A stretch of 64,000 nt of DNA from positions 90,761 through 154,760 of the forward strand of contig CAIVRE010000002.1 of the NCBI GenBank assembly GCA_903908245.1. The letters run 5' to 3'. The stretch comes from Candidatus Omnitrophota bacterium. GTDB taxonomy: Bacteria > Omnitrophota > Gorgyraeia > Zapsychrales > Fredricksoniimonadaceae. The notes below the pieces were generated by a model. The model was given only the letters and a program-made list of their open reading frames with translations. It had not been told where the DNA came from and did no database searches. Below are positions 4,025 through 56,603 of the stretch, piece by piece; the stretch's first letter is position 1, and each line of letters starts with the position of its first letter. The translations under genes and the position numbers were made by a program.

Positions 4025-4597
4025 TTATTTCTTGATCACATCTCTGAGTGTCTGCCCTACCGCCGGATTCTTCTTCTGGTCGGGCAAAAGCCGCGTCACA
4101 AAACGATCGCAAGCCTCCCGATAGAGCACCGGGGCGACCAGCAGGACATGCCTGCCGGATAATGATGATAAAGTCATGGTCTGCAAGTACTTCTGTCCGG
4201 ATGCAAGGAACAGGAACATCAGCATACTGGCAGTTAACACGAGCCGGCCCACCGCAATGACCACCGCGCCCCATTTGTCGACCGCGTTCTCCGCTTTCAC
4301 CGAAAAAAGCATCAGAAGCCCGTCACGACTGAATTTGCATACCAGCAGTGTCATCACCCATAGAAAAGCAAAAGCCGCAGCCGCAAGGAGCGTCGGCGGA
4401 ATAATTGTCTTTTGAACCACGCCGCTCAAGGCAGTATAAAAATGAAAAGAGACCATCAACGCCAACAGGAGCGCCAGGGTCTTGAGGAACTCGACCACAA
4501 AACCGGTCTGTGCGCTGACATAAAAGATCCTTATTGCGATCAGCAGAACAACAATGTCCACCCAATTAATGCTTTTGAGTATTTCCATCAGTTCCAT
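4025..4597 (-). CDS. CvpA-family membrane protein
   Basis: 190 aa, four predicted TM helices. The N-terminus MELMEILKSINWVDIVVLLIAIRIF... is typical of the colicin V production (CvpA) family. Sits immediately upstream of dnaG. Confidence 0.6.
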   Translation of the reverse strand: MELMEILKSINWVDIVVLLIAIRIFYVSAQTGFVVEFLKTLALLLALMVSFHFYTALSGVVQKTIIPPTLLAAAAFAFLWVMTLLVCKFSRDGLLMLFSVKAENAVDKWGAVVIAVGRLVLTASMLMFLFLASGQKYLQTMTLSSLSGRHVLLVAPVLYREACDRFVTRLLPDQKKNPAVGQTLRDVIKK

Positions 4598-4709: not shown

Positions 4710-7649
4710 TCAGCGGACTGTCGATAACCGCCAGCGCCTCAAACCCATCCAGAACACAAGAGCCAATACCAAAAGCAGCCACGAAGGTGCAGGGGAATTG
4801 ACGCTATTCTGAGGCACCTCGGGCGTTTTCTCAAAATCAAACACATCGGACGCCGCCATCATCTGCTTCTCTTTATCCTTTAAACCCCTCCATTGAGCAT
4901 CCCGTTCAACCACCATATACGCGGTTGCCGGTGTCAGGACCCCCAGCTTCCGGCTTTGTTCAACCAGCCAGGGCTTTTCCTTATCCATTAAACGAACACT
5001 GGCCATAGCCGCCTCATTGCGAAAGATCAATTCCAGCCCATGTTCATAACCCTCATCATTCAAAAGGGATCCCGTCTTCTCCAATGGCTTGAACCCTCCC
5101 GCACCAGGATCATAGACCTCTACCCGGCCGGTATCGAGCCTGTCCGTATACCCACGCGCATCGGATGACACCGCAGAAACCCTTGATCCCTGCCGCAAAA
5201 GAACAACCCTGTCACTGGCGGAAGCTTCCGATGCGCTCCACAAAGGACGCTGTTCCCTGCCTTTATTCGGTGCAATGATCAAATACTGGCCTGCCTCGGG
5301 AATATACCTCTTAAAAACATCCATTTTCTCGGAAAAAGGCAATACATTCTGAGGCGCCCCCGTTAAAACAACAAACAGCGGATATTCCTGCCAGCAATCC
5401 GAGCCCGCACGGTCCAGGCACGTTTCTTTATATTCCAATACCGCATTCTGGATAACCCTTTGCAGGTCCAGGGACCCGCGTAAAGGCAAAGACACCCGCC
5501 CAAACGCCCTTCCCAGGTACGCGGCATCACGCACATCAACAAACCCCGAAGACAATGCCCGCGCCTCAAAATTGGCTTCCGTCAATTTCGCCTTACGGAT
5601 ACCGGGATATTGCGCGGCAACGCTCCGGATCAGCGCTTCATACGCTGCCGAGCCCATCGAAGCCTGGGCAGAACGGTCAATAATAAAATGAAAGTACGGC
5701 TTTCGCGCCAAAGCTGGCAACCGGGCGATCACGCCCCCGGGCAGGATCAGCGCAGATGCGCCGACAACGCCCGCCGAAGGAGCGTCTGCTGACGCCGCCG
5801 TCAGGACAACAGGCCGGCCATTGAGCCTGACCGCAGGATAAAAATGCTCGGGGTAAAGAAAATCGATCTCGACCTGCCGCGTCTCATTCTGCAGGACAGG
5901 GAACACCTTCAATTCCACCCGGGTCGGCGACTGATAGGCCAGAAGGCCGGGATCCCGCCGGGTATTCTTGATCTGGTCATACACCCACATGGCCGTCTTC
6001 TTTTCAAAGATCCGGCCCGGCACCATTGCATCCCCAACCTTCAGGCGAAAACCGGTGATCAACACGCCCGGAGGAAGGTCGATCGTCTGATAAAATTCCC
6101 GCGGCCCGGAAAATTGCCATGCATATTGATCTTCTTTAACTGCCGTCTCGGCCTTCGGGGCCCATGCCATCGATAAACTCAAGGTGCTCTGAACAAGATC
6201 CGAAGACGGCTTAACAGATGCCACGCCTTCTGCAACAATGTTCACCTCGCGCTCATGCGGCGCCCGCCACCCTGTACCGGCCCTCATGCGCGAGCTGCGC
6301 CCCCAATAACTGCTGACTGAAACTTCCGGCAATTCTTCACCGGAGAACAATTTGTAAACATAGCTGATCTTCTCGTCAGGCAAGACCATACCTTCAAAAA
6401 CGATCGCATTATAAAGATCGGACAAATACGGGAGCCCGTCACCCTCTTTGAATTGCTTGAGCGCCCTCATGGTCCGCGCCACATCTTGCGCCGCGCCAGG
6501 GAACTTCAGGTCCCCGTGGCCTTCCGATGAATACACATATTCCAGCGCCTGCTTCAGGACGATCTTGTCTTTCACGACCTGGACACCAAAGAACAAAGGA
6601 AGGACCAGGAGCCCTGCACAAACAAACATGACGGCTCTGCGCAGCCCGAGTCCGGCTACTGCGGCTTTCCAGTCGTCCATAAGCGCTTTCGTATGGACCA
6701 GGAACAACGCAACGGGGATCCAGGCCAGAAAGCCGAACCCGAAAAACAACACCGCCAGAATACCCAACGGCAGAAAAGGCAGGACGATCAGAAAAAAATA
6801 CGCCGTAACAAGAAAAGTGACACTGCGCAGGAATAAGCCCCAGCCCACCGATCCGGGATTTCGCAATGGCGGAAGGATCATCAGGATCCCGTTGATAGAC
6901 ACCAGAACGAACAGCAATATCCCTTCAGGCCCCGTCCACACCTGGAACACCTTTATAAAAAGAGAGATCATTGCCGGGCCGGACGCCGCCAGAAGAATAC
7001 GCAGGATGGAATTCTCCAATGCTCCTTTAACAACAAGGCTTTGATAGGTTGCCATCACAAAACGGACGAACAACTGCATGAAGAACAAACACACAGCCGC
7101 AAAAATAAAGAACGGAACAAATGAGAATGCGGCATACCTGTCCCCGAAGACCATGACCGTCCCAAGCAGCAACATCGGCATCAGAAAGATCCCGCCAAGG
7201 ATAAAAACCGGCAAACGGCCTTCATCGATCTCGAGCTTATGACAGGAGATCCTGACCACCCCGTAAAATATCCCGGGCATCATGAACGTGGCCTGGGACA
7301 GAAAAAGATCGCCCTGGTCGATGATCCAGCGGTCAATATTCATGGGGACAAGCTTCATCCCGCCATTCATAAAGATATAAAGATAAATAATATTCAAGCA
7401 CATCAGGAGCACGCTCATTTTCGCGGGGACCACGGCACCCCGCGAAAAACTCTGCCACCACAGCGCCACCGCAAGGCCGATCATCGCGGCCTCACAGGCA
7501 CCGACAGCCAGCCAACTTTCCCGGGCCTCCGGCCCGACCAGCCAGCACGCGTGGCAATTGATCAAAAGAAGGACGACCTGCGGCAGGATAAAAACCCAGA
7601 TCAACGCGGCCGGCGTCCCGAAAGACTCGGGCAGATTTGGCTTATTCAT
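4710..7649 (-). CDS. large polytopic membrane protein with a C-terminal sorting-signal-like anchor; possible exosortase-system VIT/vWA-domain protein
   Basis: 979 aa. About 350 aa of N-terminal hydrophobic helices, then about 600 aa of soluble domain. The C-terminus reads ...NSVNSPAPSWLLLVLALVFWMGLRRWRLSTVR, a Pro-rich motif, one TM helix and an Arg cluster, the tripartite architecture of PEP-CTERM-type signals. The start overlaps the stop of the upstream exosortase-like gene by 8 bp. The VIT/vWA assignment is from memory of the XrtN-system VIT family and is not motif-verified here. Confidence 0.55.
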   Translation of the reverse strand: MNKPNLPESFGTPAALIWVFILPQVVLLLINCHACWLVGPEARESWLAVGACEAAMIGLAVALWWQSFSRGAVVPAKMSVLLMCLNIIYLYIFMNGGMKLVPMNIDRWIIDQGDLFLSQATFMMPGIFYGVVRISCHKLEIDEGRLPVFILGGIFLMPMLLLGTVMVFGDRYAAFSFVPFFIFAAVCLFFMQLFVRFVMATYQSLVVKGALENSILRILLAASGPAMISLFIKVFQVWTGPEGILLFVLVSINGILMILPPLRNPGSVGWGLFLRSVTFLVTAYFFLIVLPFLPLGILAVLFFGFGFLAWIPVALFLVHTKALMDDWKAAVAGLGLRRAVMFVCAGLLVLPLFFGVQVVKDKIVLKQALEYVYSSEGHGDLKFPGAAQDVARTMRALKQFKEGDGLPYLSDLYNAIVFEGMVLPDEKISYVYKLFSGEELPEVSVSSYWGRSSRMRAGTGWRAPHEREVNIVAEGVASVKPSSDLVQSTLSLSMAWAPKAETAVKEDQYAWQFSGPREFYQTIDLPPGVLITGFRLKVGDAMVPGRIFEKKTAMWVYDQIKNTRRDPGLLAYQSPTRVELKVFPVLQNETRQVEIDFLYPEHFYPAVRLNGRPVVLTAASADAPSAGVVGASALILPGGVIARLPALARKPYFHFIIDRSAQASMGSAAYEALIRSVAAQYPGIRKAKLTEANFEARALSSGFVDVRDAAYLGRAFGRVSLPLRGSLDLQRVIQNAVLEYKETCLDRAGSDCWQEYPLFVVLTGAPQNVLPFSEKMDVFKRYIPEAGQYLIIAPNKGREQRPLWSASEASASDRVVLLRQGSRVSAVSSDARGYTDRLDTGRVEVYDPGAGGFKPLEKTGSLLNDEGYEHGLELIFRNEAAMASVRLMDKEKPWLVEQSRKLGVLTPATAYMVVERDAQWRGLKDKEKQMMAASDVFDFEKTPEVPQNSVNSPAPSWLLLVLALVFWMGLRRWRLSTVR

Positions 7650-8208
7650 AAAAGAGCTCCCTTTCCCAATAAATTATTACAGCGCACAGGACGGGAAGGA
7701 ACACCATCACTCCCACCCCCAAATGAAGCAACCCCTGGAACTTTTCCAGGCTCAAGGCTTGAGCCCAGGCATGAACATAATATGCACCCACGATCCGGAT
7801 GCCATTAAGAAGTATCGTTAAAAGGTACGCTCCCGCCACTGTCGCCGCAACCGCGGCCCATTTAAAGACAGGCCGGGACTGGTACCTGGAAAGGATATGC
7901 ACAACAGAAACAGAAACGATCAAAGAAAAGAACCCGAACGCGTCACACTCCCGTGTCACGCGGACCAGCGTCCCCGAAACCGGGATCACCCAACTCCCGT
8001 CGATCAGGGAAGGCTTCTGCCAGAAGAACAAACCCGCAATATATGCCGCCGGCTGCCCCCATAAAAAGTGGATCCATTGCGCCACTACACGATGGCCGGA
8101 CCACAATAAATTTGTGAACGCGAACAACCCGACCGCCTGCAGGACGATCAGGTCATTCTTGACAACACTATGCTGAACCTTTGTCGAACGATCGCTCATA
8201 AACGGCAC
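7642..8208 (-). CDS. short exosortase/archaeosortase-family protein (possible XrtN-type)
   Basis: 188 aa, entirely hydrophobic helices. Has a Cys in a TM context (VTRECDAFGFF) and an N-x-x-R motif (LLNGIRIVGAYY), resembling the conserved Cys/Asn/Arg of exosortases. Translationally coupled to the 979-aa protein downstream and 4 bp from the small TM gene upstream. Confidence 0.5.
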   Translation of the reverse strand: MPFMSDRSTKVQHSVVKNDLIVLQAVGLFAFTNLLWSGHRVVAQWIHFLWGQPAAYIAGLFFWQKPSLIDGSWVIPVSGTLVRVTRECDAFGFFSLIVSVSVVHILSRYQSRPVFKWAAVAATVAGAYLLTILLNGIRIVGAYYVHAWAQALSLEKFQGLLHLGVGVMVFLPVLCAVIIYWERELFYE

Positions 8209-8211
8209 CGC

Positions 8212-8418
8212 TCACTTCTGCATGGTCACGTAAGTATAAGTAAAAAGCCCCCCTGTGATCATCACGGCTCCGGCAATAAAATAAACGCCGGAAACAGCGA
8301 TCAGCTGAAGGTCCCAGCCTATCGCGTACGGAACGACCAGAAGCGAACCGAACGCTCCCAGCGTGAACACCGTCAATGCAACGGCCTTACACATTGTTTT
8401 GATAGCTTCGGGTGTCAT
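8212..8418 (-). CDS. small 2-TM membrane protein, unknown function
   Basis: 68 aa with two hydrophobic helices (AVALTVFTLGAFGSLLVV; VSGVYFIAGAVMITGGLF). Ends 4 bp before the exosortase-like gene. Confidence 0.5.
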   Translation of the reverse strand: MTPEAIKTMCKAVALTVFTLGAFGSLLVVPYAIGWDLQLIAVSGVYFIAGAVMITGGLFTYTYVTMQK

Positions 8419-8504
8419 AACAACCTCCTGTTTTAAACTGTCTCCATCGATCCATCGCCGCTCTTCCCGGGGGCGGCCTCTCCCGTCTGATCTTCCCTAA
8501 AACC

Positions 8505-9827
8505 CTACACCTCCTCCCGGCACCACCGATGATACGACATAGCGGCGAAAAAGATCCCGGCCGCGGCCACTGACCCTGTATGCAACAGGATCGTCCGTAC
8601 GTCATAAGCCGGGACACCCCAGAACTCGGCCAGCGCATAAGCGCCATACAACACAATAAGGCTCACCGCCATCCGCTGGTCCTTCCATGTAGCCACATAG
8701 GCCAGCAAAGCAAGGGTCATCTGCGTGAACACGCCGGTAAAGACCAGATAGGCCCAGAACTTCGACGAGTAAATGAACGGCAATCCCCACAGCACCGCCG
8801 GAATGATCCCGAAAAGGACCGATGTCATGACCCACGCCGCCAGAAGCGCTGCCGCCAGCAGGACGCCCCATTGCACGGCCACCCCTTCCCGGCGCACGGG
8901 ACGCAGCAGGGCGTAATCCCGGAACGCCACGGTACGGTAATAAAAACACAGCATCACCGTCAGCGGAGCCGCGACAAAAACGAGGAAATTGACATACGGC
9001 CGCGCATAGAATCCCGTCGGGCCAGCGATAAAAAGAACATAAGCCATGAACACCGCGGCCCCCGCCAGCAGCATCCCCCCGATGCCAGGGACCGCCTCAT
9101 CTTCCACATACGCCCAATGAAAAGCCTGGCCGATAAGGTTTTTCTGTTGCGCGTAAAGCGGGGCCTTCCGGTACACATAAGGGCGGCTTGATGTGCGGGT
9201 CCTGGCGCGGTGCAGCGGCCAGGACAGAACATACGCGTATTCCACCATGCCCTCGTTCAACATCGCCAGGCGCCACAGGAACCCCGTGAGCAACAGGACC
9301 GCCACCGCCGTCAACCCGTAGAACGCGGCATCCGACACGACCAGAAGCTGCAAAAGGTCCCGTGAATGCCCGACGATAAAAAGCAGGGCCCCGTAACCGA
9401 TGAAGAGGATCATCCTCCCGGAAATATACGCGATCACGATCGTGGCAAGAAAGGTCCCCAGGCACAGCACGATCCAGGCCCACTTGACCCGCTCCCCGAC
9501 AAGGTCCGTCAACCCCGACAGCCACCAGGCCGTCACAAAAGCCACGGCCAGCCACAAGAAACTCCCGACGGCAATATGCGCTGCACGGTACCCCGGGACC
9601 AGCCGCGCCATGGGAGACGCCATCTGGCGCTTGATCATGACCCCGAACTGAAAGGCCAGCGTCATCCAGAGACAAAGCCAGACGGTGGTCAGCTCGTCGA
9701 ACAGGTCCCACTGCTTTCCGGCCATGAACACCTTGCCCAGCGCAAGAACAGCAACAAACCCGAGGACCAGGGCCATCCAAAGCCAGCGCTCCCGATACAA
9801 CATGAGAACAGCCTGTATCCTTTTCAT
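8505..9827 (-). CDS. polytopic permease partner of the ABC ATPase (ABC-2-like), no recognisable family
   Basis: 440 aa with roughly 10-12 hydrophobic segments. Its start overlaps the ATPase stop (ATGA-type coupling). Confidence 0.55.
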   Translation of the reverse strand: MKRIQAVLMLYRERWLWMALVLGFVAVLALGKVFMAGKQWDLFDELTTVWLCLWMTLAFQFGVMIKRQMASPMARLVPGYRAAHIAVGSFLWLAVAFVTAWWLSGLTDLVGERVKWAWIVLCLGTFLATIVIAYISGRMILFIGYGALLFIVGHSRDLLQLLVVSDAAFYGLTAVAVLLLTGFLWRLAMLNEGMVEYAYVLSWPLHRARTRTSSRPYVYRKAPLYAQQKNLIGQAFHWAYVEDEAVPGIGGMLLAGAAVFMAYVLFIAGPTGFYARPYVNFLVFVAAPLTVMLCFYYRTVAFRDYALLRPVRREGVAVQWGVLLAAALLAAWVMTSVLFGIIPAVLWGLPFIYSSKFWAYLVFTGVFTQMTLALLAYVATWKDQRMAVSLIVLYGAYALAEFWGVPAYDVRTILLHTGSVAAAGIFFAAMSYHRWCREEV

Positions 9828-10699
9828 CGGCTCATCTCCAGAAAGATCTCTTCCAGGTTCAGATCCTCGACGTCCACCTTTACGCCCAGCGCCTTCTCAA
9901 GGCCCTGACGACGGCCCTCGTTATAACCGCGGACGGTCAATATGGCCTGCTGTCCACGGACATAACTGTTGACCAGCCCCTCCATCACCAATGGCGGCAG
10001 GGCTCCGGTAGGGCAATGCACACGGATACGCTTGACCTCGTCTTTGAGCTCATCAAGCCCGCCGCAGAAATCGATCTTGCCGGACCGCAGGACCGCCACC
10101 GTATCGGCCACACGCTCAAGGTCGGAGGTGATATGCGTCGAGAAGAAAATGGTGCACTTGCGCTCGGAAACAACTTCCAGGATGGTCTTAAGGAACTCCC
10201 GCCGCGCCACCGGGTCCAGGCTTGCCACCGGCTCGTCAAAAACCAAAAGTTCCGGCTCATGGCCCAGGGCAAGAATAATAAGGAGCTTTTGCATCTCTCC
10301 CTCTGAAAGGACCTCAACGCGCGTGGCAAGGTCCAGATCCCACTCCCGCACAAGCCTGTCCACCAGTGCAGCATTCCAATGCGGATAAAAGGACGCCGTA
10401 TACTCGATAAGCCTGCCCGCCTGAAGCCACGGATAAGGCCGATACCCCTGGGGGACATAACCGATCAACGCCTTGGCCTTGTTGGACAGGTCCCATGATC
10501 CCTCGCCGAAAACCGTCATCTTCCCCGAATCCGTCTTGAGCAAGCCCAGGACACATTTAAGCAGCGTCGTCTTGCCGGCCCCGTTCTTTCCCAAAAGGCC
10601 GATCACAGACCCTTCGGGCACATCCAGAAAGACTCCGTTGAGGACCGCCTTGCGGCCATAAGCCTTTTTGACATCTTCACAATGGATAACGTTAGACAT
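9824..10699 (-). CDS. ABC transporter ATP-binding protein
   Basis: Walker A GLLGKNGAGKTTLLK, signature LSEGEMQKLLIILAL, Walker B LLVFDEPVASLD. Confidence 0.9.
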   Translation of the reverse strand: MSNVIHCEDVKKAYGRKAVLNGVFLDVPEGSVIGLLGKNGAGKTTLLKCVLGLLKTDSGKMTVFGEGSWDLSNKAKALIGYVPQGYRPYPWLQAGRLIEYTASFYPHWNAALVDRLVREWDLDLATRVEVLSEGEMQKLLIILALGHEPELLVFDEPVASLDPVARREFLKTILEVVSERKCTIFFSTHITSDLERVADTVAVLRSGKIDFCGGLDELKDEVKRIRVHCPTGALPPLVMEGLVNSYVRGQQAILTVRGYNEGRRQGLEKALGVKVDVEDLNLEEIFLEMSR

Positions 10700-11096
10700 G
10701 ATGATCTTCCTCCCAGATATTTTTCAATTTCGTCAGGACGCTCTCCTGGTCAAGGGACAATTGCCGCGCGCTGTTAACCACTTCCCTTATAAGCAGGATC
10801 AACCGGTCCTGGCTCATATCAGGAATAGTAATATTTTCCGCTTTGGCCGGTATCCGCATCCCCTGGCCACGCACGAATTCAATAATGCCGCTCTTCTCTA
10901 ATAAAGAATACGCCTTTGACACGGTCATGGGATTGACTTCAAGGCTCTTGGACACATCCCGGATCGAAGGCAGGAATTCACCGGCAGTGAACTTGCCCAT
11001 CGCAATTCCGATCTTGACCTGGTCATAGATCTGCCGGTAGATCGGCACGCCCGATGTTGGATTGATCTGAAAGTATAACCTGGCATTAATATCCAT
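10692..11096 (-). CDS. GntR-family transcriptional regulator, short YtrA-like subtype
   Basis: 134 aa. N-terminal GntR winged HTH (LPSIRDVSKSLEVNPMTVSKAYSLLEKSGIIEFVRGQGMRI). Short C-terminus and first gene of an ABC operon, as in the YtrA subfamily. Confidence 0.85.
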   Translation of the reverse strand: MDINARLYFQINPTSGVPIYRQIYDQVKIGIAMGKFTAGEFLPSIRDVSKSLEVNPMTVSKAYSLLEKSGIIEFVRGQGMRIPAKAENITIPDMSQDRLILLIREVVNSARQLSLDQESVLTKLKNIWEEDHHV

Positions 11097-11329
11097 ATTC
11101 CTCCTCGTATGATCTTATACTGCATCAGTAGTATAATACACAGATACACCAATGTCAATACTGAACAACATAATTCATTAATATCTGTTAATTATTGCAG
11201 TATATTGACTTAAGATAATATTATTACTATCGATAAATATTTTCTTACGAACATTTACATATGTGCATTATTCATATGATACAGTACTTATCGTAGCAAT
11301 TGTATGCATTAGCGAGCGGGTGACGCCAG

Positions 11330-11535: not shown

Positions 11536-11569
11536 ATAAAAAAGCCCGTGTCAAAAGATCGACACGGGC
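11536..11569 (-). terminator. rho-independent terminator of smc
   Basis: Stem gcccgtgtc / gacacgggc (11544-11552 / 11561-11569) with an 8-nt loop. On the minus strand a TTTTTTATT run follows. Lies 23 nt after the smc stop. Confidence 0.75.
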
Positions 11570-11592
11570 TTGAATACACCAAGGAAACTTTA

Positions 11593-38426: not shown

Positions 38427-39737
38427 CTATTCCGCCAAAACATACTCCTGGAACTTCCACAACAAATAGAGCGGGATATTCCTCAACCTCTCACCGGAAA
38501 GATTGTCCAGGGATGTTGTCACCGCGATCTCCGGCGAATATCTCTTCCTGTACTCCGCAAGGCTGCGGGATCTGTTATTACGCCCGGATTTCACTTCAAC
38601 AGGCACAATCCCTGACCCGATCTGTACTATAAAATCAAGCTCTGCCAAATTATTAGACTTCCAATAAAACGGCATAGAAATACCGGAATTCAACAACTCC
38701 GTCAATACAAAGTTCTCCGCCAAAGCCCCTTTAAACTCTTTGTACACCTCCGGTCCTTGATAGATCGTCTCGGCAGGCAATTGGGCCATTTTTCTCAATA
38801 AGCCAACATCCGCCGCATACAATTTAAAGTAATTACGATCGGCATACGCGCAAAGAGGCATAAACGGTTTCTCTATCCTGGCAACTTTATGAACCATACC
38901 GGCCGCGATCAGCCATTCAAGGGCATCTTCAAGCTCTTTCGCCCTTGCCCCCGGCCTGACATGGCTAAAAATAAATTTGCCATTCTCCCTGGCAAGCTGG
39001 CTGGGAATGGACTTCCAGATCAGATTCAACCTTGGAATATCCGCTACAGGCGCGTGCTTGGCAAAATCCAGTTCGTAAGAATCCAATATCTGCTGCTGAA
39101 CCATTTCGACAGCAGAAACATCTTTTGTTTCTACCCATTTAGCAACAGCTTCCGGCATACCACCCGTAATATAATAATTTCTCAAGAGATCAACCAGTCT
39201 CCCGGTAAACAATTCAGGGATCGGCTCCGACTTCTTCAAGCCAGACAAGAAATCAAGGATATCTTTTCCCTGTTCCGCCAAAACAAATTCATAGAAACCC
39301 ATCGGGCGCAATGTCAGAAAATCAACCTTGCCGACAGGAAAAGAAAATGGCTTTGCTACGGCGATCCCGATCAATGATCCAGCGCAAACCACATGATACT
39401 CAGGCGCTTTCTCACAGAAATACTTCAAAGAGGTTAAAGCAAGGCCGCAAAATTGTATCTCATCAAAAATGATCAACGTTGCTTCAGGCCTAATGGCTTT
39501 TCCGCGAAACACGCCCAACTCTGTAACTATTCGCCGAGGATCAAGGTCCCGCTCAAAACATTTCTGTAAATGTTCATTACCTTCAAAATTAAAATAAGCG
39601 ACATCATCATAAGCTCGCCTTCCAAATTCTTTAAGAAGATAAGTCTTCCCGGACTGCCGCAACCCCTTTACTAATAGTGGCTTGCGAACCTTTGAATCTT
39701 TCCAGTTATAAAGGTCTTTTATCGCTGATCTATCCAT
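38427..39737 (-). CDS. AAA+ ATPase fused to a PD-(D/E)xK nuclease-like domain (COG1373 type), paralog 2
   Basis: Walker A GLRQSGKTYLL, Walker B LIIFDEIQFCG. The C-terminus has AELDFIVQIGSGIVPVEVKSG. Confidence 0.8.
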   Translation of the reverse strand: MDRSAIKDLYNWKDSKVRKPLLVKGLRQSGKTYLLKEFGRRAYDDVAYFNFEGNEHLQKCFERDLDPRRIVTELGVFRGKAIRPEATLIIFDEIQFCGLALTSLKYFCEKAPEYHVVCAGSLIGIAVAKPFSFPVGKVDFLTLRPMGFYEFVLAEQGKDILDFLSGLKKSEPIPELFTGRLVDLLRNYYITGGMPEAVAKWVETKDVSAVEMVQQQILDSYELDFAKHAPVADIPRLNLIWKSIPSQLARENGKFIFSHVRPGARAKELEDALEWLIAAGMVHKVARIEKPFMPLCAYADRNYFKLYAADVGLLRKMAQLPAETIYQGPEVYKEFKGALAENFVLTELLNSGISMPFYWKSNNLAELDFIVQIGSGIVPVEVKSGRNNRSRSLAEYRKRYSPEIAVTTSLDNLSGERLRNIPLYLLWKFQEYVLAE

Positions 39738-41679: not shown

Positions 41680-42906
41680 TCAAAAAGCGGTCCAAGGAAT
41701 AGCATAAATATTCGTCGCCACTGAGTAGGTCTTGCGCCCGCCATAAACAATGATCCCCTTGCCTGCTTCCGGATGGGCCGCGAGGAACTCCCGCATTGAC
41801 CGGGTATCTTTGAAATTAATTTCATTCGATGATTTCACCTCAACCCCAATAACCTGGCCGCTGGAACGGATCACAAAATCAACCTCAGCCGCTCCATTCT
41901 TTGGCCTCCAATAAAACAATTCCGGCGTGATCATCTGCAGGGAAGCCCAGGACATTATCTGTTGAAGGACAAAATTCTCAAAATAACGCCCTTTGATCTC
42001 GGTTTTACCCAAACCGCGGGAAGAATGGATCCCCGCGAGAAAACACGCCACCCCTGAATCAAACCAATAATATTTAGCCTGCTTATACGCCCTCTCCCCC
42101 TTAACGGAATATCCCTTTAATTCATACAATAAATTGGTATCCTTCAGAAGACTCATATATCTGCTGACATTTGTCCTGGTTTCGCCGCAAAACTTCGACA
42201 ATTCCTCCTGCACGCTCTCCCAGCCAGTCGCCTGAGCCAAAGCCTCCATTAATCGGCGAAAATGCTCGGGATGCCGTATCCTTACCAGATCCTGAATATC
42301 CCGTTGAATAAAAGTATCCACATAGCTGTTCATCCTCTCCAACGCGATCTTGTCGTTCCTGGCCAATACAACACCCGGCAGGCAACCCCGCCATACAACT
42401 TGCGGCATATTACCATCCGAAGATGCATCCCCCGGCTTGGCCTCTTTGCCTTCCCATATCTGATCAAATACACCCGCCGTCAACGTCGGATTTAATTCTC
42501 TCGATGAAAAACCCGTTAAATGCAAATATTTTGCCCGTCCGGCCAAAGTTTCCCGGGGAGCCTGGCGTAATGAAATATTCCCGGAGCCTGATAGAACAAA
42601 TTTCCGCTGACGATCAGACTTATCAACAAAATATTTTACTGTCACCAATAATTCGGGAGATCTTTGGATCTCGTCAATAATGGTCGGCCTGTCCTGCGAA
42701 AGCAATCCCTTGGGGTCTTCCTTGGCTTGCGCCAGGACATCCGCGTCATCCAGGGTCAAATATCGCCAATCCTTTAAAAAGCCCGCTTGCTCCAGAAGCG
42801 TGCTCTTGCCAACCTGCCTTGGCCCTGTCAGAATGACCACCGGATGCGAATGAAAAGCCTCCGCGATCCGCGCCTCCATCCGACGTGAAATATACTTCAT
42901 ACGCAA
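41680..42906 (-). CDS. AAA+ ATPase fused to a PD-(D/E)xK nuclease-like domain (COG1373 type), paralog 3
   Basis: Walker A GPRQVGKSTLL, Walker B TIIDEIQRSP. The C-terminus has AAEVDFVIRSSGQVIGVEVKSS. Confidence 0.8.
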   Translation of the reverse strand: MRMKYISRRMEARIAEAFHSHPVVILTGPRQVGKSTLLEQAGFLKDWRYLTLDDADVLAQAKEDPKGLLSQDRPTIIDEIQRSPELLVTVKYFVDKSDRQRKFVLSGSGNISLRQAPRETLAGRAKYLHLTGFSSRELNPTLTAGVFDQIWEGKEAKPGDASSDGNMPQVVWRGCLPGVVLARNDKIALERMNSYVDTFIQRDIQDLVRIRHPEHFRRLMEALAQATGWESVQEELSKFCGETRTNVSRYMSLLKDTNLLYELKGYSVKGERAYKQAKYYWFDSGVACFLAGIHSSRGLGKTEIKGRYFENFVLQQIMSWASLQMITPELFYWRPKNGAAEVDFVIRSSGQVIGVEVKSSNEINFKDTRSMREFLAAHPEAGKGIIVYGGRKTYSVATNIYAIPWTAF

Positions 42907-44276: not shown

Positions 44277-46298
44277 TTATCGACTCGCTCCAACAACTGA
44301 GTAAAGCTCCCAGCCGGTATCGGGCGTGGTCAGGACATGGACAGGGAAATAACGCATCAGCGCAACCCTAAGCGAAGGCCCATTCTCCCGAAGCATTCCC
44401 GGATTAATAAGAATATACTTCCCTTCCCCGCACCAGGGATCGCTGGAATCAAAATTCTTGATATGTATCCGCCCGTCGAAGATGGCATGTAAGACACCGC
44501 TATAAGTGACAACATAAACAAGCGGCCGCGCGTCTCTATCCAAAAAGAAACGATTGAGCGTCCGCACTTCCTGAAAGGTCGGAAGGTTTTGCTCCCTGTT
44601 ATCTTCTCTGTTCTTCACAAATTCAGCTGCGGCATGATACCGCTGTTCAGACGTTATTAAAAACAACCCCCAATAACGCTTTTCAAACCACCACACCTGA
44701 AACAATAAAGAAAGCATCAGGCTGATAATAACCCATACGCGCACAAGCTTCTGTATACCCGAGCGAACACGATCAGAAGAAGGCACCTCCATGTCGGCCA
44801 TCAATGCCATGGCCAGGATCATCAACGTGCTTGAAGCAAGGAACACGCGGCTGTAATGCAATCCCAAACTCCAGGACACCAGCTGAAATATAAATAACCC
44901 TGCGATCAGATCAAGGGCTTTGTTCGAACCGCGAAAGAAGGGCCAAAAGAAAACCCCCAAGATAAACGGGAACGGCCATCCCATTGACGTTGTTCGCATA
45001 GCAGCCATCGGCAGGCAATTCAAAAACGGCAAGGCCTTGGCCAGCAACTCCAAACCGACACCCAAGGCAAAAACCAGGTAAACCTGCAGGACAACCGGCG
45101 GAAAGCCCACAATATTCCAGTTTGCCCTGAACCATTCCATGGTAAAAGTAGAAACATAAGTCCCGTTCTGGAACGGCCAAAAAGGTTTGGTAGGATAAAT
45201 AGGATTGCCATAGATCACAATATTCGCCCAGCATCCAGACGCGGATATGAACATCAAAAAACAGAACAACGCAAAGACAACTGCAAATGCCGCCCAAGGG
45301 CGCCGAAGAAACTTGTTCAAAAAGAACCACCCGCAGCCAGCGCACAACACCATGACAATGATCCCTGAAAACCGATTCCCGAACGCGAACGCCGCACCGG
45401 CCAAGGCAAAGACGGACAAATAAGCCGCGGCCCGCAACGATCCTTGCGACTCCGTATCCTTCCAATAGATCACGAACGCCATCGCAACCGCCAATAACGC
45501 CGCCAGTTCAAACATCATCACAACCGCATCAACCTTTGTTGATACTGCCAGATAAGATAACTCGGGGATAGACAAAAAACCGGCGACAGCCGTCAGCGAC
45601 CAGAAACGACGCGCGCCAACAAGCCTCAAAAAAGAAAAGACACCAAATCCGCAGAACACAAAATTCAACAAACGGGCAAAACGCACCAGCCAGGTATCAT
45701 TGACCAGGCCATAAAGCATGGCATCCCAGCTTTGTACCATGAAAGAACTTCCATAACACTGCGGGCCTTTTTCATGCAACATGTCCTGCAATGTCCGCCC
45801 TGACGACATAAGCTTTGAGAAATACCCATACGCCACGATCTCATCCCGGTCCGACCACGGGATCGTCACCCGGTAAAAGTACATTGCCAACACCAAGGCA
45901 ATGAACAAAAGAACGAACTTTTCTGCCCGACTCAACCGAACGGTCAGACGCTTCCTGAACTGCCCAAAATCCGCAAGAACAGGCCACGCCCATATCAGCG
46001 CAACAAGACCCAACACCCCGTTGACGGCCTGGCAATAAGCCCAAGGCAAACTGCTCGTAAAACCCCACACAGGGACCATCGACATTACGCCACAACTCAG
46101 CGCCCATGCCAGGAAACATAAGAACAAAGACGCATAAAATACCCCGTTCTTCTGAGTGCCGGCATAAAGCCTTAAAGGCTTACCTACAGCATCATTGATC
46201 ACTTTCAGCGTGGCTAAATAAAAACCCGCCAAAGCGAAAATAACGGAAAACCATCCCAACATGAACACTCTCCCAATATCAAAATTTACGGGCGACAA
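44277..46298 (-). CDS. large polytopic membrane protein, unknown family (possible polymerase/GT-C)
   Basis: 673 aa with about 14 or more hydrophobic helices across the whole length. Confidence 0.5.
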   Translation of the reverse strand: MSPVNFDIGRVFMLGWFSVIFALAGFYLATLKVINDAVGKPLRLYAGTQKNGVFYASLFLCFLAWALSCGVMSMVPVWGFTSSLPWAYCQAVNGVLGLVALIWAWPVLADFGQFRKRLTVRLSRAEKFVLLFIALVLAMYFYRVTIPWSDRDEIVAYGYFSKLMSSGRTLQDMLHEKGPQCYGSSFMVQSWDAMLYGLVNDTWLVRFARLLNFVFCGFGVFSFLRLVGARRFWSLTAVAGFLSIPELSYLAVSTKVDAVVMMFELAALLAVAMAFVIYWKDTESQGSLRAAAYLSVFALAGAAFAFGNRFSGIIVMVLCAGCGWFFLNKFLRRPWAAFAVVFALFCFLMFISASGCWANIVIYGNPIYPTKPFWPFQNGTYVSTFTMEWFRANWNIVGFPPVVLQVYLVFALGVGLELLAKALPFLNCLPMAAMRTTSMGWPFPFILGVFFWPFFRGSNKALDLIAGLFIFQLVSWSLGLHYSRVFLASSTLMILAMALMADMEVPSSDRVRSGIQKLVRVWVIISLMLSLLFQVWWFEKRYWGLFLITSEQRYHAAAEFVKNREDNREQNLPTFQEVRTLNRFFLDRDARPLVYVVTYSGVLHAIFDGRIHIKNFDSSDPWCGEGKYILINPGMLRENGPSLRVALMRYFPVHVLTTPDTGWELYSVVGASR

Positions 46299-47943
46299 TG
46301 ATCGTTTGCGTCAAAAACACAGGCCAAACAACCTCCCGGTAAAGGATCTCTCCGTGCCGGTCGACCAAACGCACAACCTCTTCGGCTCTTAACGGACGCT
46401 CGTCATTGAAGATCCAAAGCCCGAGCAACACCGACCAGAACCGGGTAAAATGATAAAGCCACGTCGATGTGGGGAATGTCAACAACACATGGCCGCCCGA
46501 CTTTACCACATCAAAATGCGACTTCACCGCCGCCATCGTCCCTTCAGGCGAGAAATGTTCTATCAACCCGGCACTGAAAGCAATATCCATCCCACCGGGC
46601 ATATCCAGGTTCAGGATGTCCTTGTTATATAAACGAACATTGCCCACGCCTTGCACTCTTTGGCGTAACTTTTCCAATCCTGTCTCGTTATTATCCACAA
46701 TGTGATACTCTCCAGGCCGTATCTCTTTGAGGATCCCATCTAAAAAACAACTATTAGCCCCGCCCAACTCCATAAGTTTCGATCCACGCCCTTCATCCTT
46801 TACATACGTCTTGATATTGCCCAGAATACGTTGTTCCATGATCTTGCGGGTCATCCTGGCCGAAGCAAAAGGTTTTTGATAATAAAGGTCCCAATCCGTC
46901 TTTTCATAACGATTGTCCGATACAAAAATAAAGTCGCGCTGGATCAGGAAATTCAAAAGGAAAAGGCCCATCTCAACAATGATCTTGGCCAGGAAAACAT
47001 TGAAACCAAAGCCCTGCACCAAGACCATAATGGCCGCACAGGAAATGCCCCCCAACAAAAGAACAAGAAGAAAATATTTGCTTAAAACCCGGTAATCTTT
47101 CTCTGTCGAATAAAAAACCCTGGTCTTGATCAGCCGGTAATTCACCGCCATGGCTGAAACACGGGATACCGCGATACTTAACGCAACCTGGGAACACACG
47201 CCATACACCAGCATAAAAACGATAAGATCGATCAGTGCGGTAAGGACAGAGACAAGAAAGAACCTGAAGAAAACAAACCCTATCTTCATGGAATCAAGGA
47301 CAGGATTAAAACGGGATCGTAAAGTGATATCACTGACCAAGGCGATCGAAACACGCCTGACGGGAATATTGTTGTATTTACACAACAAAATAAGATCCAT
47401 ATCGAATTCATAATAATTGGACCGGATCTTTAAACATAACGGGATGAACGACCGCGGGATAGCCCTCATGCCCGTTGTAACATCCTGCAGATCAGCCCCA
47501 GTGAACGCCCTGAACAAAAAACCAGGGACAACGCCCAAACCTCCCGACAAAGAAGGTTTGTTTTCCAAAGGCCGGCCCACTCCCTGAACAAGGCTATTCG
47601 GCGACATTTCCAGTTCACGCGCCAAAGCCAAGGCATCTTCAAAGCGATGCTGTCCGTTGGCGTGCATTACGACAGCCCCCGCGTGCCCCGGATGCTGGCA
47701 ATAAACATAATTAAGGCCCGCCTTGATCGCCGCGCCTTTGCCTGAATTTACCGCGTGTTTTAAAACTGTCAGCCTGGAGTTCTTTGCAAACGGGGAGAGC
47801 ATGTCGTCATAAATACTGCCGGACCCATCATCCACCACAACAACCGCGGCGATATCCGACTTTAGCAAGGAATCCAGAAGAGAAAAAAACCGTTCCCGGT
47901 GGGGTAAATTATAAAACGGGATCACGACAGAAACATTTAACAT
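46279..47943 (-). CDS. tri-domain fusion: GT2 glycosyltransferase, GtrA-like 4-TM module and class I SAM methyltransferase
   Basis: N-terminus VVIPFYNLPHRERF...VVVVDDGSGS (GT2). The middle has 4 TM helices ending AMAVNYRLIKTRVF (GtrA N-x-x-N-R-x-x-F-type motif). C-terminus LMELGGANSCFLDGI...LYNKDILNLD...AFSAGLIEHFSPEG (methyltransferase motifs I to III). Confidence 0.7.
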   Translation of the reverse strand: MLNVSVVIPFYNLPHRERFFSLLDSLLKSDIAAVVVVDDGSGSIYDDMLSPFAKNSRLTVLKHAVNSGKGAAIKAGLNYVYCQHPGHAGAVVMHANGQHRFEDALALARELEMSPNSLVQGVGRPLENKPSLSGGLGVVPGFLFRAFTGADLQDVTTGMRAIPRSFIPLCLKIRSNYYEFDMDLILLCKYNNIPVRRVSIALVSDITLRSRFNPVLDSMKIGFVFFRFFLVSVLTALIDLIVFMLVYGVCSQVALSIAVSRVSAMAVNYRLIKTRVFYSTEKDYRVLSKYFLLVLLLGGISCAAIMVLVQGFGFNVFLAKIIVEMGLFLLNFLIQRDFIFVSDNRYEKTDWDLYYQKPFASARMTRKIMEQRILGNIKTYVKDEGRGSKLMELGGANSCFLDGILKEIRPGEYHIVDNNETGLEKLRQRVQGVGNVRLYNKDILNLDMPGGMDIAFSAGLIEHFSPEGTMAAVKSHFDVVKSGGHVLLTFPTSTWLYHFTRFWSVLLGLWIFNDERPLRAEEVVRLVDRHGEILYREVVWPVFLTQTIIVARKF

Positions 47944-49514
47944 TGCTCGCCTTTATTACGCGCGCTCAATTGATGGGAATACGCCCAGGCAACACCAAAC
48001 ACAGCCCAGAACGGGACTGCATTATAGGGTAATTCCAAAATGACCCCGAACTGCGCATTCACGATCCAGAAGATCAAAACACTCACCAACAACCCGCCTT
48101 GCCAGGAACGCGCCCGCAAGAAAGCCTGCACCATCCTGACAAGAGAGAAAACAAGGAAACCGATCATAGCCACTCCAACGATCCCGCCACGGTATATAAA
48201 ATACAAGAACGAATTATGCGGCATGATCCACCCATCCCTGGACCACTCTCCGTATGCGATTCGCGCTATCTCGATCGAGGTCGATCTAAGCGGCTTACCA
48301 AAACTGAAGCCAAACAAAGGCCGTTCTTGCAACAATTCCTTAAGCATATCCCGCCAAATAAATAACCGGAATACCGCGTTACCATAAGCAGGAGCTAATG
48401 CACGCAATGACCGGGGTGAATGCTTCTGAACATCAGGCGTTTCATTTTGACAAACCTTTTCACAAGAAGGCTCTCCTGAAGGGGTTATTACAAGCTTAGG
48501 AGAAGACATCTGATGTGAGGATTGCGTCATATCAGGAGCACTGGCCAGGGGAACAGGCTCACACTCTACTTCTTTTAACGGAGCTACCACCGAAACGGCT
48601 ACTGGAGGAACCAACAAAGCGTCCCCCGGCTGTTCTTCTTTGTGGTAGATCTGCGCCTGCAGCTTTAGAGGAACAAAACTATTTCTTTGTCGTTTAATAA
48701 TCTGATCATTTTCGCGATATGAATTAATGATACGCCCTGGCGTGATCATCGAGGTCGCCGCATTGCGATCTCCCCATATCCATAAACTCATGCCAAAAAG
48801 TATCCCTATGATCGAAATAAGAAGCAACTGCCGTAATAAAGAAAACCCCATAATCCTGGTGGCGTACCAGACAAGGAAAACAATGCCGGCAACAACGCCC
48901 AACAGACACCCACGCCCGTTATTTAATGTCACAAACCGGAACAAAAAAAGACAAACAAAGAATCCAACAAACCCCCACCGTAACCCACCATGAGATATAC
49001 CGAATGCAACACATAACGCCAGGATAAGAAAAATATACTGCAAGCTCACGTTCGGGAACACAACGAATATCACAGCAAGAAAAATAGCACTGAACAAACC
49101 CAACCCTTTGTGATAACCGATCTTCACCTTCCCCAAAAAGTGCTCCACAAGGATCGCAAAAACCGGATAATAAAACAACGCCGCATTGCGCAGCGCATAC
49201 GGTCCTCCGCTTATATACCCTTGCGCAGTCTTAACCATCACCCAGGTAAAATAAACCAAAACCCACAAACGCCAACCGCGCTCTGCGCGCCAGTCAACAG
49301 GATCAATAAAAAGATGCGCGATCAAAACGATCACACAAAAGATCATCAGCAGTTCGCCGACAAAGACAGGAAAATCAAGGAAAGACAACTGAACACTGAT
49401 CTCCGCGAAACGGGAACCGGCCACGGCATAAAGCAAAGTCACTAATGCCACCAGCCCAAGGCATAAATAACTTGATACCCTGATGAACATTGAAGATCTT
49501 TGCGTCATGCCCAA
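47937..49514 (-). CDS. O-antigen ligase / polymerase (Wzy_C)-family membrane protein with a long hydrophilic insert
   Basis: 525 aa. EWSRDGWIMPHNSFLYFIYRGGIVGVAMIGF matches the Wzy_C motif pair S-R-x-x-W and H-N-x-x-L...G-x-x-G. A hydrophilic insert of about 110 aa is rich in Pro, Ser and Glu. Confidence 0.6.
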   Translation of the reverse strand: MGMTQRSSMFIRVSSYLCLGLVALVTLLYAVAGSRFAEISVQLSFLDFPVFVGELLMIFCVIVLIAHLFIDPVDWRAERGWRLWVLVYFTWVMVKTAQGYISGGPYALRNAALFYYPVFAILVEHFLGKVKIGYHKGLGLFSAIFLAVIFVVFPNVSLQYIFLILALCVAFGISHGGLRWGFVGFFVCLFLFRFVTLNNGRGCLLGVVAGIVFLVWYATRIMGFSLLRQLLLISIIGILFGMSLWIWGDRNAATSMITPGRIINSYRENDQIIKRQRNSFVPLKLQAQIYHKEEQPGDALLVPPVAVSVVAPLKEVECEPVPLASAPDMTQSSHQMSSPKLVITPSGEPSCEKVCQNETPDVQKHSPRSLRALAPAYGNAVFRLFIWRDMLKELLQERPLFGFSFGKPLRSTSIEIARIAYGEWSRDGWIMPHNSFLYFIYRGGIVGVAMIGFLVFSLVRMVQAFLRARSWQGGLLVSVLIFWIVNAQFGVILELPYNAVPFWAVFGVAWAYSHQLSARNKGEQC

Positions 49515-55748: not shown

Positions 55749-56603
55749 TTACTGCCACTTGTGATTATAAATCCCGAATGTTTTTCTGAAAACCGTTGCC
55801 AGCCCGCCGTAAATAACCTTTAAAAGATTCAAAGGCTTCCATGGCCAGGGACAAGCCAACGCCACAAATACGAACCATGAAAACGGGTTGCTCGAAGACC
55901 GCCTGGAAAAGTAATCCCTGAAAAACTCCCCTCGGCTGGCCGCACGATGCCAGGCATGAAAGCCTGTCGTAAGTTCATCCACCTTAAGGGTAAGAGCCGG
56001 ATCGGTCATCAACCGGTAACCCTTGTGGTGCGCCCGAATGGTGAACTCATAATCCGACAAATAATGCGGCAACACTGCCGGATAAAATCCTCCAATATCC
56101 AGAAAATCTCCCGCTCGAAGAAAAAGCCCGCGGGTCGACAAACAATTAACCTCTTCCGGGATCTCTGTATGATCGAATGTGAGCCGCCGCCAATCCGCGT
56201 GAACCCCCGCCTCTCCAAGCTCTCCGCTCTGCTTTCTGAACACTCGCGCCAATAAAAGCGTCTTTGGCTCTTTAGCCAGGAGCTCGGCCGCGGTCTGAAA
56301 AAAATCCGGGGCAAACTCCGTATCATTATTGATCAAAAGCACAACATCCTGTGGATCAACGCCATGCTTCTTGATCCAAAGATACCCTTGATGCAAACCG
56401 CCCGCCCACCACCAGTTGCCACTCCCCGTAATAACGGTCAGCCCTTCAACCTTGCTTCTTACATAATCTTGCGTACCATCGGTCGAACCGTCATCAACAA
56501 GAATAAGATGATAATTGCCATAAGATTGCGACAGAAGGCTATCAATAAAAAGCCTGGTCTTTTCAATACGATTGTGAACAGGAAGAAAAATATAGATCTT
56601 CAT
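55749..56603 (-). CDS. GT2-family glycosyltransferase
   Basis: MKIYIFLPVHNRIEKTRLFIDSLLSQSYGNYHLILVDDGSTDGT. Confidence 0.85.
   Translation of the reverse strand: MKIYIFLPVHNRIEKTRLFIDSLLSQSYGNYHLILVDDGSTDGTQDYVRSKVEGLTVITGSGNWWWAGGLHQGYLWIKKHGVDPQDVVLLINNDTEFAPDFFQTAAELLAKEPKTLLLARVFRKQSGELGEAGVHADWRRLTFDHTEIPEEVNCLSTRGLFLRAGDFLDIGGFYPAVLPHYLSDYEFTIRAHHKGYRLMTDPALTLKVDELTTGFHAWHRAASRGEFFRDYFSRRSSSNPFSWFVFVALACPWPWKPLNLLKVIYGGLATVFRKTFGIYNHKWQ

Follow-up and report, generated by a model that had tools for sequence, protein, structure and literature searches.

An exosortase gene coupled to the gene of its predicted MSEP-CTERM substrate in a Candidatus Omnitrophota genome

We have analyzed 64,000 nt of DNA from Candidatus Omnitrophota bacterium (assembly GCA_903908245.1, contig CAIVRE010000002.1, positions 90,761 to 154,760 of the forward strand), referred to here as the window. 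The window is only 64 kb of the source genome, and statements on the window as a whole are limited to those 64,000 nt. Three adjoining minus-strand genes encode a small protein with two hydrophobic helices, a short membrane protein of the exosortase family and a large protein that ends in a candidate sorting signal. The original prediction, made from the sequence alone, treated the three as one compact unit in which the enzyme would process its large neighbor. Our analyses point to a likely enzyme-substrate pair made up of the second and third genes, with the first gene standing outside the pair. The three genes are as follows:

8212..8418, minus strand: gene for the 68-aa protein with two transmembrane (TM) helices; ATG start, AGGAGG Shine-Dalgarno sequence
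7642..8208, minus strand: XrtK-like mini-exosortase gene; 188 aa from the GTG at 8208, 185 aa from the ATG at 8199
4710..7649, minus strand: gene for an MSEP-CTERM family protein of 979 aa, the predicted sole substrate of the adjoining exosortase

All three open reading frames (ORFs) are present on the minus strand where they had been predicted. Gene callers used on public assemblies place the start of the exosortase at ATG 8199, which corresponds to the 185-aa form. The spacer between the stop of the 68-aa gene and the start of the exosortase gene is therefore 3 nt (GTG) or 12 nt (ATG) and not the 4 bp first reported, while the reported overlap of 8 nt between the exosortase stop and the ATG of the 979-aa gene was found as described. 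A GGGAG-type Shine-Dalgarno sequence for the 979-aa gene sits within the upstream exosortase gene. Because each of the three has conserved homologs (the exosortase has 131 representatives, the large protein at least 29, and the small protein 9 proteins plus 16 loci), we regard them as real genes and not as chance ORFs. In one metagenome assembly of the same organism (ENA ERZ27313089, L082:3551-6489), the 979-aa gene was called as two ORFs of 688 aa and 281 aa, and both fragments (P0045 and P0046) also occur in NCBI and ENA records. The split may stem from a frameshift, from a pseudogene variant or from misassembly.

Profile searches confirmed the 188-aa protein as a member of the exosortase family, with a score of 28.0 bits against the exosortase/archaeosortase signature TIGR04178 (cutoff 23) and residues 82-182 aligned to positions 1-92 of the 97 in the profile. 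Its top subfamily match was exosortase K (XrtK, TIGR04287), and no other Xrt subfamily, XrtN included, matched at E<=1. The enzyme had been called unusually short. This description did not hold, since the XrtK profile itself has 163 positions and the 131 relatives found by HMMER search are mostly ~130-230 aa long, with some Omnitrophota versions of 147 aa. Scores against Pfam PF09721 (Exosortase_EpsH) were also obtained for relatives of the enzyme. P0048-P0050 (31-32% identical to the window enzyme) and one Bacteroidota XrtK exceeded the gathering score with 31.7-36.5 bits, and P0002 (70% identical) fell below it (19.3 bits against 25.7). Because these relatives align just to positions ~105-252 of the 254 in the EpsH profile, the name mini-exosortase appears accurate for a protein that matches the catalytic C-terminal half of a canonical exosortase.

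To place the XrtK assignment in context, TIGR04287 scores were compared for MSEP partners from outside the Bacteroidota (L001, L002, L003, L017, L020, L024, L033 and L037). These enzymes come from Omnitrophota, Kiritimatiellae, Verrucomicrobia, Planctomycetota, Gammaproteobacteria and Leptospirales, and all eight scored below the cutoff of 55 (26.2-53.7 bits), whereas two Bacteroidota enzymes reached 165-175 bits. Because every non-Bacteroidota partner in this comparison also falls below the cutoff, the sub-cutoff score of the window enzyme reflects a narrow model. On these scores, the window enzyme is an ordinary member of a wider clade that partners MSEP-family proteins.

Alignment of 40 homologs (29% mean column identity) revealed invariant residues at C85, N132, R135, H159, G163 and F167. 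The exosortase-like Cys and N-x-x-R features had already been recognized, and to these our alignment adds the His, which had been omitted. Cys, Arg and His form the inferred catalytic triad of the exosortase/archaeosortase superfamily (10.1101/2023.06.07.544157), and C85, R135 and H159 all lie within the stretch that matches TIGR04178. Their positions in the window are:

7945..7947, minus strand: TGT codon of C85 (185-aa numbering; C88 in the 188-aa form), the predicted catalytic Cys, at the outer end of helix TM3
7795..7806, minus strand: N-x-x-R motif, N132 and R135 in 185-aa numbering (AAT and CGG codons)
7723..7725, minus strand: codon of H159 (185-aa numbering), the invariant His that completes the inferred Cys/Arg/His triad

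An AlphaFold2 (AF2) model of the 185-aa enzyme (predicted local distance difference test, pLDDT, 90; predicted template modeling score, pTM, 0.83) contains five TM helices and a small, three-stranded beta-sheet just before the Cys, in agreement with the predicted all-membrane protein. The loop between TM3 and TM4 has a net charge of +2.4 in the Xrt family. Because this loop is positive, and hence cytoplasmic, Cys85 (start of TM3), Asn132 and Arg135 (outer part of TM4) and His159 (start of TM5) would lie toward the outer leaflet. Searches of the PDB by sequence profile and by fold detected no solved exosortase or archaeosortase structure.

The 979-aa protein belongs to a family that is already curated. 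It matched the NCBIfam equivalog TIGR04286 (MSEP-CTERM sorting domain-containing protein) with 340.8 bits (cutoff 150) over positions 6-914 of the 920 in the profile, and several of its 29 homologs, including proteins from Omnitrophota and Desulfobacterales metagenome-assembled genomes (MAGs), carry the MSEP-CTERM name at NCBI. The closest match in our genome scan was 36% identical, and Bacteroidota members were 24-26% identical. An XrtN/VIT affiliation had been proposed as well. This candidate was rejected, as the protein scored 55.8 bits against TIGR04477 (cutoff 250), with a match in the VIT region only, and the enzyme had no XrtN match. A polytopic protein that carries its own C-terminal sorting signal had also been considered atypical for an exosortase substrate, but it is the norm for the MSEP-CTERM family. 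The protein has the following features:

6531..7649, minus strand: N-terminal polytopic domain, aa 1-373, ~11 TM helices with the N-terminus inside (charge pattern and AF2 helices)
5862..6089, minus strand: VIT domain, aa 521-596 (Pfam PF08487, 37.7 bits against a gathering score of 26.5)
5250..5708, minus strand: vWA-like domain, ~aa 648-800, with a degenerate metal ion-dependent adhesion site (MIDAS)
4713..4796, minus strand: tripartite sorting signal S952-P-A-P-S956, TM helix 957-970 and R971-R-W-R974 (family alignment)

The AF2 model of the large protein (pLDDT 78.7, pTM 0.77) shows helices at residues 14-373, followed by a mixed ectodomain and, at 956-978, a terminal helix. Loop charges in the family alternate as for 11 TM helices, with the N-terminus inside, the ectodomain outside and the tail inside, and a positive loop precedes the last TM helix of the N-terminal domain (R336-R337 in the window copy). 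This topology sets the sorting motif of the substrate on the side of the membrane where the Cys, Arg and His of the enzyme are placed. The layout first described for this protein was thus retained for its soluble domain and for its C-terminal Pro motif, TM helix and RRWR tail, and the estimate of about 10 N-terminal helices was revised to 11. Within the N-terminal domain lies the motif with the strongest conservation across the family, YFFLVFLPFLPL...G.GFL...P..LF..HTK. This 11-TM domain had no match to a known family or fold. We also considered whether it might be the missing N-terminal half of a canonical exosortase, and this candidate was rejected (hhalign probability 0.5%).

The ectodomain spans residues ~374-950 (~575 aa) and has a VIT plus vWA-like, ITIH-like fold. 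It matched ITIH1 (PDB 6fpy) with an E-value of 3e-10 over ~600 alignment columns at 12% identity, with low template modeling scores (0.21-0.30), and the VIT region falls inside this match. The ectodomain also matched vWA domains. The proposed VIT/vWA relationship was therefore borne out, by a VIT domain that passes the Pfam threshold and by a matched vWA-like fold. The MIDAS (D-x-S-x-S ... T ... D) is incomplete in the family. D658 and S660 are its sole invariant positions; neither the third Ser nor the Thr is conserved, and the MIDAS Asp is replaced by Gly in the clade of the window protein ('VLTGAP').

The C-terminus carries a conserved tripartite signal, as had been predicted. P955 is invariant across the family alignment, and the motif as a whole can be written [S/P][E/A/S]P, with SEP in 34 members from the genome loci, PAP in 17, PEP in 10, PSP in 2 and SAP in 1. 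The forms differ by group, with MSEP in Bacteroidota, TSEP in gammaproteobacterial members and (S/T)P(A/E)P(S/P) in the Planctomycetes-Verrucomicrobia-Chlamydiae (PVC) group and Omnitrophota. The spacer between motif and TM helix is 0-1 residue in 60 of the 64 motif-bearing members, and the tail that follows has a net charge of +2.4 in the family. A motif that abuts the TM helix is a property of signals cut by membrane-embedded sorting enzymes (10.1101/2023.06.07.544157). No second ORF in the window ends in a Pro motif, TM helix and basic tail.

A genome scan with the family alignment yielded 80 loci, 77 of which had enough upstream DNA to be counted for adjacency. The 80 loci span Omnitrophota, Verrucomicrobiota, Victivallales, Kiritimatiellae, Planctomycetota, Bacteroidota, Gammaproteobacteria, Leptospirales and Treponema. 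An Xrt homolog lay directly 5' of the MSEP gene on the same strand in 70/77 loci and 1.7-3.2 kb upstream in three more; none was found in the remaining four. The Xrt and MSEP genes typically overlap by 4, 8 or 17 nt, and the pairwise-distance matrices of the two proteins correlate at r=0.98 in loci that have all six genes of the arrangement described below. At the level of sequence, these results show that the Xrt and MSEP genes are a conserved, translationally coupled pair, in line with the enzyme-substrate relationship that had been suggested. One-to-one pairs of enzyme and target in consecutive genes are what Haft terms dedicated systems (10.1101/2023.06.07.544157). ITIH-like VIT/vWA proteins are known to carry LPXTG signals, in that case with a dedicated adjoining sortase, or PEP-CTERM or GlyGly-CTERM signals (PMC3237569).

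Loci in which the enzyme is missing provided a further view of the signal. The homolog from Hymenobacter saemangeumensis (L069:5890-8835) has no Xrt within 6 kb upstream. It retains the body of the family (772 bits, to profile position 891 of 920), and its C-terminus is instead PID-CTERM (NF046080), with 40.7 bits against a cutoff of 26. Another member without Xrt (L021:5965-8856) ends in a PEP-like tail (VVPEP) with weak matches. The signal is thus modular, and the PID-CTERM replacement at a locus without Xrt supports the idea that enzyme and signal are matched. A third member (L080:300-3167, labeled Janthinobacterium) has an unclassified tail, and no adjoining Xrt was detected in the only 288 bp of upstream DNA available.

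Upstream of the 68-aa gene, three further genes on the same strand complete the arrangement, preceded by a promoter-like site:

8505..9827, minus strand: 440-aa polytopic membrane protein with ~10 hydrophobic segments, presumed permease partner of the ATP-binding cassette (ABC) ATPase
9824..10699, minus strand: ABC transporter ATP-binding protein, 291 aa (Pfam ABC_tran)
10692..11096, minus strand: GntR-family regulator, 134 aa (Pfam GntR), first gene of a probable six-gene operon
11130..11158, minus strand: best match to a sigma-70-like promoter, TTGACA-17-TATACT (11 of 12), ahead of the GntR gene; consensus match only

The 440-aa gene overlaps the ABC ATPase gene by 4 nt, and its product had no Pfam or NCBIfam match. 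The ATPase was closest to PmtA (NF047565, 157.5 bits, below the cutoff of 350) and the regulator to PmtR (NF047563, 62.3 bits, below the cutoff of 200). The cassette therefore resembles the PmtR/PmtA GntR-ABC export cassette in gene organization only. The 68-aa protein has the two hydrophobic helices ascribed to it, and the alignment of its family contains 14 invariant columns. It had no significant family match, the best Pfam hit being TMEM_230_134 at an E-value of 0.18. Consensus scans placed a strong terminator with a 13-bp stem at 11542-11571, at the end of the preceding SMC gene, whereas the 86 bp ahead of the 68-aa gene hold neither a promoter-like nor a terminator-like site. Past the MSEP stop, at 4687-4658, comes the next promoter-like match. 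Because the promoter-like site stands only before the GntR gene, with nothing promoter- or terminator-like ahead of the 68-aa gene, all six genes (11096..4710) are probably co-transcribed as one operon in this lineage. The gene that follows the site at 4687-4658, and that comes next after the MSEP-CTERM gene, codes for a membrane protein of the CvpA/Colicin_V family (4025-4597, minus strand; PF02674, 49.4 bits) and is not kept beside the pair in other loci.

The distribution of the 68-aa gene differs from that of the pair. Single-pass phmmer found members of its family in 9/80 genome loci (E 1e-8 to 1e-17), all of them from the Omnitrophota-type group nearest the window; the remaining 71 lack the gene, among them every Bacteroidota and Verrucomicrobiota locus. 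When metagenome loci are added, the cassette is present in 18 loci (nine genome, seven metagenome, and L092 and L093). In all 18, the 68-aa gene is accompanied by genes for GntR, the ABC ATPase and the 440-460-aa protein, in the same order in all nine genome loci. It lies immediately 3' of the 440-460-aa gene in 15-16 of the 18, L002 being an exception; in L004 it is 103 bp downstream. An independent metagenome scan with the small-protein alignment recovered seven loci with the 68-aa gene after the 440-aa gene in every case. Xrt/MSEP came next in three of these, two of which have the same two inserted genes, and in L085 and L091 profile hidden Markov models detected no Xrt/MSEP in the 3-4.5 kb downstream of the cassette and 68-aa gene.

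The insertion occurs in one Omnitrophota subgroup (L007, L008, L009, L013, L088 and L090; four genome and two metagenome loci) in which two genes separate the 68-aa gene from a 147-aa Xrt (e.g. L013:3993-5525). One encodes a 265-aa protein without a family match, and the other encodes a PrsW-family intramembrane metalloprotease (229 aa, PF13367, 98 bits), which puts a second membrane protease beside the exosortase. Despite the insertion, the 68-aa gene stays beside the 460-aa gene.

Per-gene identities also separate the two groups of genes. Between the window and L004 (Omnitrophota MAG ELA167), the GntR, ABC and 440-aa proteins are 81%, 75% and 56% identical, and the 68-aa, Xrt and MSEP proteins are 35%, 34% and 32% identical. 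Between the window and L092, the same cassette proteins are 50%, 60% and 27% identical, Xrt and MSEP are 69% and 62% identical, and the 68-aa protein is 59% identical. The mosaic pattern of L004 implies recombination between the 440-aa gene and the 68-aa gene. Because these identities are discordant, the genes form two modules with separate histories, [GntR-ABC-440aa-68aa] and [Xrt-MSEP], which in one clade commonly, though not invariably, sit side by side. We assign the 68-aa gene to the end of the upstream cassette and not to the Xrt/MSEP pair. This assignment is made by position and is not absolute.

Taken together, these observations make it quite likely that the Xrt and MSEP genes specify a dedicated exosortase system of the XrtK/MSEP-CTERM kind, with one enzyme for one substrate, that the 68-aa gene is outside the pair, and that the six genes probably form one operon. 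We predict that the 979-aa protein inserts into the inner membrane through its 11 N-terminal TM helices and displays the ITIH-like VIT/vWA ectodomain on the outer face. The far end of the ectodomain would be held by the SPAPS motif, the abutting TM helix and the cytoplasmic RRWR tail. The coupled 185-aa, five-TM enzyme would then use its predicted Cys85, Arg135 and His159, toward the outer leaflet, to cut at or beside SPAPS, taking off the C-terminal helix together with the tail. If it behaves like archaeosortase A and the sortases, the enzyme may then transfer the new C-terminus to an acceptor via a thioacyl intermediate. Because the N-terminal domain would keep anchoring the protein after cleavage, the expected outcome is maturation or covalent attachment of the free end of the ectodomain and not release of the substrate.

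Several points weigh against this interpretation. Cleavage, the cleavage site and transfer all rest on analogy, and our literature searches on the MSEP-CTERM, XrtK and XrtN families returned no relevant paper and no experimental study, as the original prediction had anticipated. The loss of one helix lacks an evident purpose, because 11 TM helices would still anchor the substrate and no acceptor is known. The degenerate MIDAS leaves no ligand that could be assigned to the ectodomain. The window enzyme scores 32.9 bits against TIGR04287, below the cutoff, and has no match to PF09721 at E<=1, and the literal M-S-E-P is absent from the window protein, which has S-P-A-P-S. The triad is placed by loop charge, and the one-substrate claim covers the 64-kb window. 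Finally, the position of the 68-aa gene is less clear-cut than its distribution suggests. It lies directly after the MSEP gene in L002, its divergence in L004 tracks Xrt/MSEP rather than the cassette, and in a mirror-tree comparison it correlated with all of the genes at r 0.82-0.89, with no discrimination between the modules.

The alternative that survives best, although we think it doubtful, is that all six genes work together as a single functional system in this Omnitrophota-like lineage. On this view, the acceptor or the cleaved C-terminal peptide might be exported or recycled by the ABC transporter, which might instead sense the state of the envelope and control expression of the sorted protein through the GntR repressor. 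Consistent with such a system, the six-gene order is kept amid wholly different flanks in the window and in its closest relatives, L092 and L093 (large proteins 62% and 57% identical). The order also occurs in nine genome and three metagenome loci in which the MSEP protein is only 32-36% identical to that of the window. The sole strong promoter-like site precedes GntR, no terminator-like site lies between the modules, and all six distance matrices correlate at r of at least 0.82. However, this correlation may reflect shared phylogeny, and GntR-ABC cassettes of this type are common and generic. Each module also exists alone, with about 60 Xrt/MSEP loci lacking the cassette and the cassette of L085 and L091 lacking the pair. 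The discordant histories of the modules imply recombination between them, and the PrsW-family protease gene and its companion have been inserted between them in six loci.

We consider it unlikely that the 68-aa protein, the mini-exosortase and the large protein are a three-component system with the 68-aa protein as an accessory exosortase subunit. As a general unit, this trio is largely refuted. The idea draws on the 3-12 nt that separate the 68-aa gene from the Xrt start in the window, on adjacency of the two in L003, L004, L006, L015, L087, L092 and L093, and on the L002 and L004 findings above. Nevertheless, most Xrt/MSEP genome loci lack the 68-aa gene, which was never found without the GntR-ABC-440aa cassette. 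Two unrelated genes part it from Xrt in the PrsW-bearing subgroup, and in L085 and L091 it accompanies the cassette where the pair is missing. The conserved unit that had been proposed is therefore replaced by a 68-aa gene that tracks the cassette.

A more elaborate scheme, to which we give little credence, would make the Xrt/MSEP pair a self-contained machine for covalent attachment and not a sorting system. By analogy with eukaryotic ITIH heavy chains, the freed C-terminus of the ectodomain might be ligated to an envelope glycan or lipid, the 11-TM N-terminal domain might supply or present the acceptor, and in Omnitrophota-like lineages the GntR/ABC/68-aa cassette might regulate or feed the process. 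It is very improbable that the exosortase-like protein does not process its neighbor at all, with the C-terminal helix as a permanent second anchor and an enzyme that acts elsewhere or non-proteolytically: the literature searches gave no experimental evidence of cleavage in the family and helix removal has no obvious sorting purpose for a protein already anchored by 11 TM helices, but such a view is opposed by the 91-95% adjacency across phyla with overlapping junctions, the distance correlation of the two proteins, the invariant Cys/Arg/His, the conserved motif that abuts the TM helix, the different curated sorting domain that replaces the signal where the enzyme is missing, and the want of an alternative substrate candidate in the window.

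A dedicated XrtK/MSEP-CTERM pair is not new at the level of catalogues, since both partners have curated models and relatives of the large protein already carry a family name at NCBI. Its value lies elsewhere. An enzyme of 147-185 aa with one adjoining substrate is about the simplest system in which exosortase cleavage, and possibly transpeptidation, could be tested. The natural PID-CTERM swap supports the matching of enzyme and signal, and the repeated association with a GntR-ABC cassette within one clade provides a lead on regulation. Our results also expose a gap in annotation, as TIGR04286 names the non-Bacteroidota substrates specifically and their enzymes receive just a generic name because the XrtK model misses 8/8 of those scored here. 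This gap is fixable, and the XrtK model needs broadening.

With regard to the surroundings, GC skew is below zero in all 2-kb bins of the window (1-64000), and all long ORFs that do not overlap a longer ORF are on the minus strand. For these two reasons, the window appears to be transcribed in one direction throughout. An Rfam scan of the window returned no family at the gathering score. Between 44000 and 64000, GC content drops from ~0.54 to 0.43-0.47 across a minus-strand surface-polysaccharide cluster, which includes a GT2+GtrA+methyltransferase fusion (46279-47943), a Wzy_C-like gene (47937-49514) and GT1/GT4 glycosyltransferase genes (52043-53212 and 56600-57838). Exosortases are often linked to exopolysaccharide (EPS) loci, but the Xrt/MSEP pair is over 36 kb away from this cluster. 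Two paralogous AAA_14 + DUF4143 ATPase genes (38427-39737 and 41680-42906, minus strand) lie at the change in composition.

Comparison with known systems places the window pair within a broader set of sorting enzymes and targets. One parallel is with ITIH proteins, which resemble the ectodomain in their VIT and vWA folds (ITIH1, PDB 6fpy). The MIDAS, however, is degenerate in the window protein, and ITIH proteins are secreted, eukaryotic and without membrane domains. ITIH heavy chains are cut near the C-terminus, and the new C-terminus becomes covalently linked, through an ester, to a glycan (glycosaminoglycan). The parallel with the cleavage and attachment predicted here is suggestive only.

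Among prokaryotic systems, exosortases A and B with PEP-CTERM belong to the same superfamily and use a similar class of motif ([S/P][E/A]P in the window type, with PEP itself among the forms seen in the family). In contrast to the window pair, they are many-to-one systems with signal-peptide substrates, usually in EPS loci (10.1101/2023.06.07.544157), and the enzymes are ~100 profile positions longer at the N-terminus than the window-type relatives. Archaeosortase A (ArtA) with PGF-CTERM in Haloferax volcanii is the best-studied system of the superfamily. It shares the inferred Cys/Arg/His triad and a motif that abuts the C-terminal TM helix. ArtA is larger than the 185-aa enzyme, is archaeal and has many secreted glycoprotein substrates, whereas the window system has one polytopic substrate. 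In ArtA substrates, the C-terminal helix is removed and a lipid is attached (10.1101/2023.06.07.544157; PMC6098224).

One-to-one arrangements are also known outside the exosortases. The Gram-negative dedicated sortase with its LPXTG target (TIGR03784/TIGR03788, 'marine proteobacterial sortase target') likewise pairs an enzyme with an adjoining ITIH-like VIT/vWA protein that has a tripartite signal (PMC3237569), and the 979-aa protein has a weak match to TIGR03788 in the VIT region. In this case, the enzyme has an unrelated fold (beta-barrel as opposed to polytopic exosortase) and the motif is LPXTG. The TIGR03788 target presumably has a signal peptide rather than a polytopic N-terminal domain. 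XrtN/VIT (TIGR04476/TIGR04477) is another dedicated exosortase with a VIT-domain target, and residues 506-598 of the window protein, from its VIT region, align to positions 351-442 of the target profile. The XrtN profile has 406 positions, compared with the much shorter one of XrtK.

The closest counterpart is the XrtK/MSEP-CTERM system of the Bacteroidota (TIGR04287/TIGR04286). The window pair differs from it in the score of its enzyme (32.9 bits versus 165-175), in its motif (SPAPS versus MSEP) and in its position directly 3' of a GntR-ABC cassette, a link not seen in Bacteroidota loci. The two systems have in common the same full-length substrate architecture, a small type of enzyme, the same gene order and overlapping junctions.

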